Part shown: piece by piece, positions 21,710-63,986 of the stretch
How positions within the stretch are numbered: the first letter of the stretch is position 1
How the letters are laid out: the number at the start of each line of letters is the position of its first letter
Notes under the pieces: model-generated
Databases searched by the model: none
The model's input: the letters and a program-made list of their open reading frames with translations, nothing else
What the model was told of the DNA's origin: nothing
Program-made: the position numbers and the translations under genes
IMG/VR virus record: IMGVR_UViG_3300018430_000021
Location: 192,001 to 256,000 of that record
Source of the DNA: a virus
Lineage: Duplodnaviria > Caudoviricetes
Reading direction: 5' to 3' (one strand)
Length of the DNA stretch: 64,000 nucleotides

Positions 21710-21741
21710 AATATAGAAAAAGAGTTGACTTTTGTCAACCC
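21710..21741 (-). terminator. tRNA-array terminator doubling as early promoter
   Basis: GGGTTGAC-AAAA-GTCAACTC-TTTTT-C-TATATT immediately 3' of the last tRNA. Confidence 0.75.
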
Positions 21742-21747
21742 TTATAG

Positions 21748-21829
21748 CGGAAGATGAGTGACTCGAACACCCAAGCCATGACGGCGGCAACGTTCGAAAT
21801 TGCTGGCTTACCAATTAGCCTAATCTTCC
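21748..21829 (-). tRNA. tRNA-Ser(CGA)
   Basis: Cloverleaf GGAAGAT/ATCTTCC, loop TT-CGA-AC, long V-arm, G73. Confidence 0.93.
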
Positions 21830-21834
21830 ATTAG

Positions 21835-21926
21835 AAGAGGTGGTAGGATTCGAACCCACGGCCCGGGATGATTACCGGATCACTGGAGTTCAAATCCAGC
21901 GCCATAAACCGCTCGGCCACACCTCC
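21835..21926 (-). tRNA. tRNA-Ser(TGA)
   Basis: GGAGGTG/CACCTCT, loop TT-TGA-AC, long V-arm, U73. Confidence 0.92.
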
Positions 21927-21935
21927 GAAATTTAG

Positions 21936-22021
21936 CTGAGGATGAAAGACTCGAACTTTCAAGCAGATTACTCCACGGCGGCCTTCCAAGCCACTCCCTT
22001 ACCAATTAGGGTTAATCCTCA
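21936..22021 (-). tRNA. tRNA-Ser(GGA)
   Basis: TGAGGAT/ATCCTCA, loop TT-GGA-AG, long V-arm, G73. Confidence 0.92.
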
Positions 22022-22188: not shown

Positions 22189-22265
22189 TCGGCAACATAG
22201 GACTTGAACCTACATGTAACCATTTACTCTTTCTACGCCTTATCAGAGCGAGGAGATAGATGCCG
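22189..22265 (-). tRNA. non-canonical tRNA-Ile(GAT), copy 1
   Basis: Acceptor CGGCATC/GTTGCCG, loop CT-GAT-AA, normal T-arm, no D-arm in the usual place. Confidence 0.75.
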
Positions 22266-22276
22266 ATAATATTTAG

Positions 22277-22353
22277 TCGGTATCATAGGAATTGAACCTA
22301 CATGCAACCAATTACCCTTTCGACGCCTTATCAGAGCGAGGGGATAGATACCG
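22277..22353 (-). tRNA. non-canonical tRNA-Ile(GAT), copy 2
   Basis: Acceptor CGGTATC/GATACCG, loop CT-GAT-AA, compensatory changes versus copy 1. Confidence 0.75.
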
Positions 22354-22420
22354 ATAGATATTGACATTTTTCAGTGATCCAGTTATTGGCTTAGATATGT
22401 CCAATGTCAATAATTTTTAG

Positions 22421-22494
22421 TCCCGGAGGTTGGGCTCGAACCAACGACCTTTTGATTATGATTCAAACGCTCTAACCAGCTGAGCTACTCCGGG
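22421..22494 (-). tRNA. tRNA-Met/Ile2(CAT)
   Basis: CCCGGAG/CTCCGGG, loop AT-CAT-AA, A73. Confidence 0.92.
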
Positions 22495-22498
22495 AAAA

Positions 22499-22558
22499 TA
22501 GCGAGAAGTATATATTACGGATTTAAAGTCCGTTTTTATATAGGAACTTCTTTTGCTA
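22499..22558 (-). ncRNA. mini-RNA carrying an anticodon-like arm with TTA (ochre)
   Basis: Rod ending in ACGGA-CTTTAAA-TCCGT; terminal helix shared with 22571-22655. Confidence 0.55.
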
Positions 22559-22570
22559 TTAAACTTTTTA

Positions 22571-22655
22571 TAGCGGGATGTAATCGCCATACGGCTTCGG
22601 ATTTGAACCGATAAGGCATGTGAGCCTATTACCAAAATAGGAACATCCTATGCTA
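22571..22655 (-). ncRNA. mini-RNA with D-like and T-like arms, no anticodon
   Basis: CCTATT-TTGGT-AATAGG and TCGG-TTCAAAT-CCGA hairpins inside the shared terminal helix. Confidence 0.55.
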
Positions 22656-22660
22656 TGTAG

Positions 22661-22750
22661 AGCTATCTGCAGGATTCGAACCTGCGACGGGGATTTTATC
22701 CACAGCGGAGTTGCAGTCCGCTACCTTCGACCGCTCGGTTACAAGACAGC
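22661..22750 (-). tRNA. tRNA-Cys(GCA) with long variable arm
   Basis: GCTGTCT/AGATAGC, loop CT-GCA-AC, U73. Confidence 0.88.
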
Positions 22751-22884: not shown

Positions 22885-22893
22885 CTATTTTCG

Positions 22894-22980
22894 TGCTAGC
22901 TAAGGGAGTCGAACCCCTGTTGTTAACTCGTAAGAGACGTGATCTACAGTCACGCGCAATCGCCACTCTGCCAAACTAGC
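22894..22980 (-). tRNA. tRNA-Tyr(GTA)
   Basis: GCTAGTT/AGCTAGC, loop CT-GTA-GA, long V-arm, A73. Confidence 0.92.
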
Positions 22981-22987
22981 ATTTTAG

Positions 22988-23072
22988 TGACAGCGGTAGG
23001 ACTCGAACCTACGGAAGCTCGTTAGAGCGGGAGGGTTACAGCCTCCAGGAATTGCCGCTATCCGACACTGCC
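22988..23072 (-). tRNA. tRNA-Tyr(GTA)
   Basis: GGCAGTG/CGCTGTC, loop CT-GTA-AC, long V-arm, A73. Confidence 0.92.
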
Positions 23073-23151
23073 AAATATCGGGCTTTCACCGATTGCCCGA
23101 ACAAACGATCCTATACAACATACGTCTCAAGGGTCTGTTCGATCATATAAT

Positions 23152-23186
23152 AAAAAAATAAAAGCGTCACTTTTCGGTGACGCCTT
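23152..23186 (-). terminator. Attenuator terminator upstream of the tRNA array
   Basis: AAGGCGTCAC-CGAAAA-GTGACGCTTTTATTTTTTT. Confidence 0.88.
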
Positions 23187-23214
23187 GAAACTCTATAAAT
23201 GAGTATTCTTGGTG

Positions 23215-23310
23215 TCACCCACCAGTCTTAATAATATACATGCCATAGATTGAGGATGTGGAGCATCCGCAAATCGAAGAACATTAATATGTATATAACT
23301 GGTGAGTCAT
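23215..23310 (-). CDS. Leader peptide MTHQLYTY*CSSICGCSTSSIYGMYIIKTGG (in-frame TAA at codon 9)
   Basis: SD AAGGA; codons match the downstream tRNAs; final TGA lies inside the antiterminator strand. Confidence 0.75.
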
Positions 23311-23380
23311 TGCTTTTATCCTTTTAATATTATATATAAAAAATTTTTTGTGTTTTTTGCTTTTTGTTTTAACGTTGTTA

Positions 23381-23412
23381 AATATAGTAAATTGTGTTGT
23401 ACTTGTAAACCC
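23381..23412 (-). promoter_or_regulatory. Early promoter driving the leader and tRNA array
   Basis: GGG-TTTACA-N17-TATATT. Confidence 0.75.
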
Positions 23413-63516: not shown

Positions 63517-63534
63517 CTTTAAAATTAATCATAG

Positions 63535-63619
63535 TGGCCAAGGTGGGATTCGAACCCACACGCCCTTTCGGACCGATGCTTCTAAGGCACCGTTGTCTCG
63601 CCAGTTCCATCACTCGGCC
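63535..63619 (-). tRNA. tRNA-Leu(TAG)
   Basis: GGCCGAG/CTTGGCC, loop CT-TAG-AA, V-arm, A73. Confidence 0.92.
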
Positions 63620-63625
63620 ATTTAG

Positions 63626-63714
63626 TCTGCTGGGTGGGAATCGAACCCACAAGCCATTAAGGCGGAAGCATCTGAGTCTTCTGTGTCTACCATAAACTAT
63701 TCCACCACCAGCGG
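63626..63714 (-). tRNA. tRNA-Leu(CAG)
   Basis: Loop CT-CAG-AT, enlarged D-loop, one acceptor mismatch. Confidence 0.85.
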
Positions 63715-63724
63715 ATAATTGTAG

Positions 63725-63809
63725 CGGAAGCGGAAGGGCTCGAACCTTCAAGCAGATTTCTCCACGGCACTTTAGCAAAGTGCTGGCTTACCTATTAGCC
63801 TACGCTTCC
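63725..63809 (-). tRNA. tRNA-Ser(GCT)
   Basis: GGAAGCG/CGCTTCC, loop TT-GCT-AA, G73. Confidence 0.93.
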
Positions 63810-63818
63810 AAAATTTTA

Positions 63819-63900
63819 TCCTTAGGGTGGGACTCGAACCCACATGCCTTTCGGCCGCGGCTTTTGAGACCGCTGCGTATACCAATTCCGCCACCTAAGG
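63819..63900 (-). tRNA. tRNA-Leu(CAA)
   Basis: CCTTAGG/CCTAAGG, loop CT-CAA-AA. Confidence 0.93.
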
Positions 63901-63903
63901 TTA

Positions 63904-63986
63904 TCGTCAGAGCGGGACTCGAACCCGTACGTCCTGAGGACACTGGCCTCTCATGCCAGCGCGTCTACCAATTCCGCCACCTGACG
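63904..63986 (-). tRNA. tRNA-Leu(GAG)
   Basis: CGTCAGG/TCTGACG, loop AT-GAG-AG. Confidence 0.92.

Follow-up and report, generated by a model that had tools for sequence, protein, structure and literature searches.

Cassette A, a short element on the minus strand of this phage genome, is very probably a ribosome-mediated leader-peptide transcription attenuator that lies upstream of a tRNA operon, as judged from its sequence and that of its relatives. The anatomy of the element, the match between the codons of its leader and the tRNAs of the array behind it, the conservation of the parts and the co-variation of leader and array are observed directly in the DNA. The window analysed is a stretch of 64,000 nucleotides, bases 192001-256000 of an IMG/VR virus record of 291,102 bp that is estimated to be 70% complete. 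A sequence-only reading of this window had proposed a leader-peptide attenuator with codons that mirror the array, and this proposal is supported by three further arrays and by ~30 related contigs.

The phage is AT-rich (GC ~37%) and 159 ORFs of at least 200 amino acids are open with the standard code. Searches of the neighbouring and large ORFs with Pfam and PHROGs gave no matches, tblastn of these ORFs against GenBank phages gave none either, and blastn against GenBank phages gave matches at the tRNA level only. The best-matching region of a cultured phage is that of Serratia phage BF, in which the tRNAs are scattered among coding sequences and leader/terminator cassettes are absent. Relatives sought through the ORF beside cassette A were not found. 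On these comparisons, the phage is one without close described relatives. The stretch in the window recurs across many studies, in metagenomes of the gut or faeces of cattle and sheep. The closest proteins to the truncated alanyl-tRNA synthetase (AlaRS) of the phage are those of Fibrobacter and other Fibrobacterota (~60% identity), a similarity that hints at Fibrobacterota as the host.

Table 1. Features of cassette A, its tRNA array and the part of array B that lies in the window. Positions are those of the window.
Feature	Position	Strand	Remarks
Sigma-70-like promoter TTTACA-17-TATATT	23381..23409	-	10/12 matches
Conserved 20-nt A/T box	23328..23347	-	ends in perfect TATAAT
Shine-Dalgarno AAGGA	23319..23323	-	8 nt 5' of ATG
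Leader ORF A, 31 codons + TGA	23215..23310	-	ATG 23310-23308, TGA 23217-23215
Segment 1, codons 2-5	23298..23307	-	pairs with 5' part of segment 2
Segment 2, last four codons + TGA + 4 nt	23211..23226	-	5' part pairs with segment 1, 3' part with segment 3 (antiterminator)
Small spacer hairpin	23188..23206	-	inside 2:3 helix
Segment 3, terminator 5' arm	23176..23186	-	
Segment 4, terminator 3' arm + T-tract	23152..23170	-	
Conserved 79-nt spacer, terminator to first tRNA	23073..23151	-	A-type cassettes only
tRNA-Tyr(GTA) x2	22893..23072	-	ARAGORN, Infernal; single copy in some strains
tRNA-Cys(GCA), 91 nt, long variable arm	22660..22750	-	ARAGORN, Infernal
tRNA with anticodon CAT (Met or Ile2)	22420..22494	-	ARAGORN, Infernal
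Two tandem non-canonical Ile(GAT)-like genes	22189..22353	-	acceptor strands + CTGATAA loop
tRNA-Ser(GGA), Ser(TGA), Ser(CGA)	21747..22021	-	ARAGORN, Infernal
Array-closing hairpin terminator	21710..21743	-	overlaps next promoter (TTGACA within stem, then TATATT)
Array B distal part, Leu x3 + Ser(GCT)	63534..63986	-	in window

The promoter, Shine-Dalgarno sequence, short ORF and terminator that had been read from the letters of the window were all borne out (Table 1). The promoter is a member of a family that is repeated upstream of other tRNA loci of the same genome, and the A/T box may be a second promoter or a 5'-UTR element. The sensor codons of leader A (Tyr, Cys, Ser-UCN, Ile and Met) are codons 6-27. 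The terminator consists of a 10-bp stem (23186-23161) and a T-tract that runs to 23152, and the cassette region folds far below shuffled sequence (z = -5.8 and -6.4). For the array, ARAGORN and Infernal call the two Tyr, the Cys, the CAT and the three Ser genes of the original list, but not the two genes listed as Ile. These Ile-like genes share acceptor strands and the CTGATAA loop with a canonical Ile(GAT) gene that occupies the same place in relatives. ARAGORN with introns gave mostly false positives outside arrays, and of its calls only the Leu(CAG) and Phe(GAA) genes that fall within arrays were taken.

The A/T box occurs in exactly four copies in the 291 kb, each 10-17 nt 5' of the ATG of a short ORF, and each of these four ORFs is followed by a terminator and then a tRNA array, in the layout box, Shine-Dalgarno, ATG, ORF, terminator. 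A promoter, a Shine-Dalgarno sequence, an ATG and an ORF of 20-37 codons are found in all cassettes. Leader B and its terminator lie 320-500 nt past the end of the window. This leader has 12 Leu codons of all six types, five Ser codons and one Trp codon, upstream of an array with Trp, Leu(TAA, GAG x2, CAA, CAG, TAG) and Ser(GCT). In leader C, codons for Asp, Lys, His, Gly and Arg (CGC/CGA) are frequent, and array C holds two Asp genes, an Arg(ACG)-like gene, two Lys(CTT) genes, three Gly genes and a His gene. A Phe/Glu/Ala array follows leader D, in which Ala accounts for 10 codons, Phe for 6 and Glu for 5. Array E of this genome has no leader, so leader control is not obligatory. A related arrangement precedes the truncated alaS gene: a promoter, an ORF of 19 codons, four of them Ala, and a terminator that shares its core with those of the cassettes.

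Each leader matches the array behind it. Own-array codon matches in leaders A, B, C and D number 17/29, 18/27, 17/32 and 21/36 (47-67% of the leader codons), against 0-6 matches (0-21%) with other arrays. The expectation that leader codons would follow array anticodons beyond a null was upheld at P values between 1e-5 and 1e-11 (binomial, against the codon usage of the phage: 2e-6, 1e-11, 1e-5 and 3e-8 for A to D); leaving out the Ile-like genes, P for leader A is 2e-5. As had been counted, 15 of the 22 codons after the TAA of leader A are Cys, Ser, Ile, Tyr or Met, with all four UCN codons present and AGY absent. The match extends to synonymous codons. The Ser codons of leader A are all UCN, upstream of an array with anticodons GGA, TGA and CGA, while 5/5 Ser codons of leader B are AGY, upstream of Ser(GCT) (joint P 4.5e-4); that Ser(GCT) sits in another array was thus read correctly, and this array has an AGY-only leader. 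Similarly, the Lys codons of leader C are 5/5 AAG and array C has tRNA-Lys(CTT).

Relatives were found with the A/T box in viral contigs (~30 loci) and with a longer version of it in metagenome contigs (43 loci). All five cassette types recur among the ~30 related contigs, and in 32 distinct leader/array combinations the match averaged 0.50 of the codons within a type and 0.11 across types. The fifth type, E (L027, L113, L126), has a leader rich in Thr, Asn, Pro, Met and Val, upstream of Asn, Pro, Thr, Met and Val tRNAs. Leader and array also change together within types. In A-type relatives the leader contains CAG CAG and the array ends with tRNA-Gln(CTG); both are absent in this phage. The D' leaders contain 3-4 codons for Val and 4-5 for Ile and lie upstream of Val(GAC) and Val(TAC), to which L120 adds Ile(GAT) x2, whereas the arrays behind the D and D'' leaders have no Val tRNA. 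In type C, CGC/CGA leader codons accompany Arg(ACG). The modules can be summarized as Tyr/Cys/Ile/Met/Ser-UCN, with Gln in relatives (A), Leu/Ser-AGY/Trp (B), Asp/Lys/Gly/His/Arg (C), Ala/Glu/Phe, with Val and Ile in relatives (D), and Asn/Thr/Pro/Met/Val (E). Jointly, the five modules of this phage clade cover all 20 amino acids.

From this arrangement we infer translation of the leader, a switch between RNA structures and a natural trigger signal as follows. Transcription would start at the promoter of cassette A (23409-23381), possibly also at the A/T box, and a ribosome would load on the 31-codon leader, the middle of which is written in codons of the downstream tRNAs. When decoding is fast, the ribosome would reach the last codons or the stop and cover segment 2, so that segments 3 and 4 pair and RNA polymerase would terminate at the T-tract, upstream of the first tRNA. 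Slow decoding of any sensor codon, due to a scarce, cleaved or uncharged cognate tRNA, would stall the ribosome upstream and leave segment 2 free. Segment 2 would then pair with segment 3 once this is made, the terminator would not form and the array would be transcribed. The model presupposes coupling of transcription and translation in the host. Since the array encodes the very tRNAs that would relieve the stall, such a loop would act as a negative feedback on decoding capacity.

The sequence-only reading went further and suggested that the phage senses stalling on these codons and then transcribes replacement tRNAs, as an inducible anti-defence or starvation switch. In the anti-defence case the natural role of the attenuator would be counter-defence: it would fire upon tRNA cleavage by host anticodon nucleases or other tRNA-depleting immunity and supply replacements. 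Cleavage of tRNAs would cause exactly the stalling at array-served codons to which the leader is predicted to respond, and it follows from the circuit that extra tRNA relieves a shortage of tRNA only and not one of amino acids. To our knowledge, however, the groupings of the five modules do not follow the target sets of known anticodon nucleases. Moreover, no sequence feature indicates a defence trigger, and supply-and-demand feedback during infection by an AT-rich phage accounts for the same anatomy. Phage tRNAs are reported to counter tRNA-targeting defences such as the PARIS nuclease AriB (PMC12409363). The anatomy is accounted for just as well by simple feedback on decoding capacity as by an anti-defence purpose, and we consider the counter-defence role plausible but less likely than not.

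The predicted attenuator depends on competition for the 5' arm of the terminator, and this was analysed in 24 distinct leaders, taken from this genome and from its relatives among the viral contigs. A terminator hairpin with T-tract lies 27-38 nt past the stop codon in 24/24 leaders (-11.5 to -18.8 kcal/mol). Likewise in 24/24 leaders, the best upstream partner of the terminator 5' arm is found at -16 to +10 of the stop codon. The antiterminator duplex that these strands would form is comparable in stability to the terminator (-12.4 to -19.1 kcal/mol) and was equalled in 0-24 of 300 shuffles. The pairing sequences differ among types A, B, C/D and E, and in each the end of the ORF repeats the 3' arm of the terminator behind it. 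Members of one type differ in the spacer but hardly at all in segments 2-4. Compensatory evidence is limited to the differences between types and to the spacer hairpin (23188..23206), which has compensatory changes at three pairs among A-type relatives.

Three mutually exclusive pairings had been proposed for cassette A. In predicted folds 2:3 and 3:4 do exclude each other, but 1:2, in which the 5' end of the ORF pairs with its 3' end, as it does in each of the leaders, overlaps 2:3 by only ~5 nt and excludes it only partly. Transcripts cut before segment 4 were folded with a 30-nt ribosome mask. Here the antiterminator formed for stalls over the sensor codons and was lost or reduced with the ribosome on the last 5-8 codons, which agrees with the proposal that a ribosome finishing the leader would block 2:3 (segment 2 spans the TGA). 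Ribosome-free truncated transcripts still form 2:3. Full-length minimum-energy folds mostly keep the terminator at any ribosome position and are uninformative as a test of switching. The decision of the switch must thus be kinetic, as in trp.

The lack of a clean thermodynamic switch in minimum-energy folds would also suit a short ORF and hairpin that act after transcription, through Rho access, RNase processing or precursor stability, and some predicted folds show pairing between the A-rich 5' UTR and the T-tract. Nevertheless, every cassette has a canonical hairpin and T-tract at a fixed distance, and the copy of the hairpin 3' arm at the ORF end (24/24) is specific to competition between terminator and antiterminator. 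A post-transcriptional role in place of transcription attenuation therefore seems improbable. The array could also bypass the attenuator if it were transcribed from a promoter downstream of the terminator, a possibility raised in the sequence-only reading itself. For types B to E a promoter between terminator and array is ruled out for lack of space, since the T-tract of the terminator runs straight into the first tRNA. In type A the spacer contains a promoter-like match (GTGACG / TATGAT), which was rejected since its spacing is not conserved (17, 16, 15 and 9 nt in relatives). Two RNA-library studies yielded contigs that span the terminator (X15 record 19, X16 record 28); the libraries may contain DNA and the contigs show neither 3' ends, strand nor expression level, so that they are a weak hint in favour of the model.

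The leader A frame from ATG to TGA (23310 to 23215) was confirmed, including the internal TAA at codon 9 (23286-23284) of this contig. Codon 9 is TCA (Ser) in 4/4 independent ruminant-gut runs (plus-strand 23285 T>G), namely two DNA and two RNA-library runs, each from a different ruminant study and other than the runs that may be the source of the contig. It is also TCA in every A-type relative, so among the sequences compared the stop is confined to this contig. The TAA may reflect strain variation or a fault of assembly, and the normal leader A, as read from these runs and relatives, is an open 31-codon ORF with one extra Ser-UCN codon. The copy in this contig may be misregulated through the change from TCA to TAA. 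Recoding of TAA as a sense codon was rejected, given the 159 long ORFs that are open in the standard code and the TCA in runs and relatives. Re-initiation at the ATG that overlaps the TAA was rejected as well, as this frame gives F/D/L/R/H/N/W, which array A does not serve.

A further possibility is that the TAA of this contig is decoded through a hairpin in the array that has an anticodon-like UUA loop (22533-22517). The homologous hairpin of relatives has a UGA loop, which would match a UCA codon, so that codon and loop differ at complementary positions, and the stem is maintained via compensatory changes. The hairpin with the UUA loop lacks D and T arms, however, and is not called as a tRNA by ARAGORN or Infernal. 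In addition, the runs X11 and X13 have TCA at codon 9 and, among the changes listed for them, an alteration of the hairpin only at 22531 (stem), so they apparently keep the UUA loop. It is simpler to assume a nonsense change private to this contig, or a fault of assembly, and decoding of the TAA is very unlikely.

Homologous leaders, in which loss of the ORF or of the codon match would have spoken against an attenuator, keep both. They retain the ORF, the position of the stop codon, the terminator and the antiterminator strand at the ORF end, as well as the Shine-Dalgarno sequence. Indels come in multiples of 3 inside the ORFs and as 1 nt in the spacers. The stop codon of type C is TAG, TGA or TAA at a fixed position, and amino-acid changes in the leaders are radical yet stay within the set served by the array (H/K, K/D, D/G, K/R). 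The retained Shine-Dalgarno sequence, the phase of the indels, the varying stop codon and these residue swaps are signs of selection on translation. It is hardly credible that the leaders are functional micro-proteins with an incidental codon match, even though the peptides are conserved across relatives and the Leu-rich leader B is strongly hydrophobic and resembles a membrane or signal peptide, since there are five unrelated compositions that each match the codons of their own array, substitutions are radical but kept within the array-served set, and the RNA-pairing 3' end is best conserved, synonymous sites included.

As leader-peptide attenuators, the phage cassettes resemble the enterobacterial leaders trpL, hisL, leuL, pheL, thrL and ilvL (of ilvGMEDA), which also have a Shine-Dalgarno sequence, a short ORF with regulatory codons and a terminator 5' arm with an alternative upstream partner, the choice being decided by the position of the ribosome. 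The thr and ilv leaders, which sense several amino acids, are closest in mechanism. The enterobacterial leaders regulate biosynthetic enzymes, whereas the phage cassettes would regulate tRNAs, so that the product acts on the sensed step itself. Furthermore, the phage sensor codons track anticodons down to the synonymous level (Ser UCN/AGY, Lys AAG), the strand that forms the antiterminator falls within the last codons or the stop instead of behind the stop, and the cassettes are phage-borne, modular and present as five paralogous copies. The pheST operon of E. coli, with its pheM leader, likewise places part of the translation apparatus under a leader attenuator that senses its own amino acid. 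It controls a synthetase and responds to a single amino acid, while the phage cassettes control tRNA genes; the leader of the truncated phage alaS is the direct analogue of the pheST attenuator. T-boxes are also transcription-attenuation switches that respond to the tRNA status of one codon class, but they bind uncharged tRNA via a specifier codon without translation and regulate aminoacyl-tRNA synthetase or amino-acid genes, whereas the phage leaders have an ORF that is predicted to be translated. Other phages also have large tRNA sets that are thought to sustain translation in the infected cell. For such sets our literature searches gave no account of a dedicated regulatory sensor, whereas the arrays described here are sorted by amino acid and each has its own predicted sensor.

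An Rfam scan of cassette A gave only Phe_leader, at 21.3 bits against a gathering threshold of 55 (E = 2.7) and for the terminator only, and leaders B to D gave no match to Rfam leader families or T-box at E <= 0.1. Leader-peptide attenuation is the textbook control for amino-acid biosynthesis and not for tRNA supply, and tRNA genes are usually described as controlled at their promoters, by growth rate and stringent control. The sequence-only reading knew of no description of such attenuators in phage tRNA arrays, and our full-text literature searches gave no report of tRNA genes being controlled through a leader peptide, whether in phages or in cells. New are the regulated product (tRNA genes), the match at the level of anticodons, the phage setting and the organisation in five modules.

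If the attenuator works as proposed, what is sensed is the decoding speed of a set of codons and what is produced are the tRNAs for those codons, which would make each cassette a minimal homeostat of decoding capacity. The cassettes are short (~200 nt), modular and specific for a codon class and could report tRNA availability in vivo; as natural modules that read out decoding capacity, they might be reused as codon-specific biosensors. The many naturally occurring pairs of co-varying leader and array provide ready experimental material. For the phages themselves, codon-specific sensors would explain the sorting of tRNAs into amino-acid-specific arrays and offer a testable answer to the question of how large phage tRNA sets are deployed. 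The cassettes may show how a phage senses and repairs tRNA depletion caused by defence, and as a tentative extension, which we do not favour at present, five codon-class sensors for 20 amino acids would form an inducible and self-limiting counter to tRNA-targeting immunity or tRNA shut-off.

Several tRNA genes of array A, which follows the codon-matched leader ORF and its terminator (leader A), depart from the canonical form. In the two tandem Ile(GAT)-like genes, the acceptor stem and T arm are present together with a CTGATAA loop, and the D arm is absent from its normal place. Neither ARAGORN nor Infernal called this pair, and in the relatives (related contigs with homologous leader-terminator cassettes) its site is occupied by a canonical Ile(GAT) gene. 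A similar situation was found outside the window for the tRNA-Arg(ACG)-like gene, which scored 33.6 bits in Infernal and was not called by ARAGORN at default settings; here too a canonical Arg(ACG) gene occupies the site in the relatives. A long variable arm is an unusual feature for tRNA-Cys, and the length of the tRNA-Cys(GCA) gene is kept at 89-91 nt among the relatives. The copy number of tRNA-Tyr varies, with one copy in some strains versus two in this phage (window 22981-23074), and joints that skip 93-94 nt in the tRNA-Tyr region were present in two runs, X13 (ruminant-gut DNA) and X15 (RNA library). Array A also encodes a hairpin with an anticodon-like loop. The homologous hairpin of the relatives has the loop CTTGAAA (UGA), is accompanied by a D-arm-like hairpin and lacks a T arm. 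This difference in the loop parallels the one at codon 9 of leader A, which is TAA here versus TCA in the relatives.

Features in and around the tRNA arrays (genome, positions in the 291,102-bp phage record)
Feature	Coordinates	Strand	Remark
Two non-canonical Ile(GAT)-like genes in tandem	window 22189-22353	-	
tRNA-Cys(GCA), 91 nt, long variable arm	window 22660-22750	-	
Perfect 5-bp hairpin, 7-nt loop CTTTAAA	window 22517-22533	-	loop readable as UUA anticodon
Hairpin terminators with -35 hexamer within the stem, then TATATT	window 21710-21743; genome 288975-289010	-	
GTTCCTAT cassettes	window 22495-22660; genome 272741, 278371, 278486, 278731, 286571, 286884, 289143	-	
tRNA-Arg(ACG)-like gene, reduced D arm, long variable region	genome 271356-271435	-	
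Two tRNA genes with separate promoters	genome 278317-278429, 278560-278675 (outside window)	-	
alaS truncated to its catalytic domain (445 aa)	genome 278763-280310	-	outside window
Stretch of ~950 nt from a tRNA-type promoter to tRNA-Met, apparently non-coding	genome 287090-288040	-	outside window
ORFs within tRNA arrays C and E	genome 271525-272240, 290245-290967	-	outside window

The two hairpin terminators are combined terminator-promoter modules that end tRNA arrays, similar to the promoter-early stem-loops known from T4-type phages. The stretch of ~950 nt contains several direct repeats and an incomplete A/T box, the conserved 20-nt element found just upstream of the leader start codons. 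Judging by their position, the ORFs that interrupt arrays C and E may be homing-endonuclease-like insertions. Upstream of the truncated alaS, whose nearest named homologues (~60% identity) are from Fibrobacterota, lie a promoter, a short ORF and a terminator. Four of the 19 codons of this ORF specify Ala, and no SD is obvious in front of it; the terminator shares the core common to the terminators of leader types C and D.

Both tRNA genes with their own promoter contain an insertion of ~30-40 nt 3' of the anticodon stem, which carries the GTTCCTAT motif in the first gene listed and a TTCCTAT variant in the second. In the cassettes named after this motif, an A-rich internal loop lies between an outer helix and an inner helix of 5-6 bp, and TCCTAT follows the inner helix. 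Their stem encloses a variable insert, which ranges from a whole tRNA or a tRNA-like RNA to an anticodon-like hairpin alone. Nine of the 12 minus-strand copies of GTTCCTAT in the genome are located in tRNA regions, and ~5 copies would be expected genome-wide. The cassettes may serve as processing stems or decoys, or they may be mobile mini-elements.
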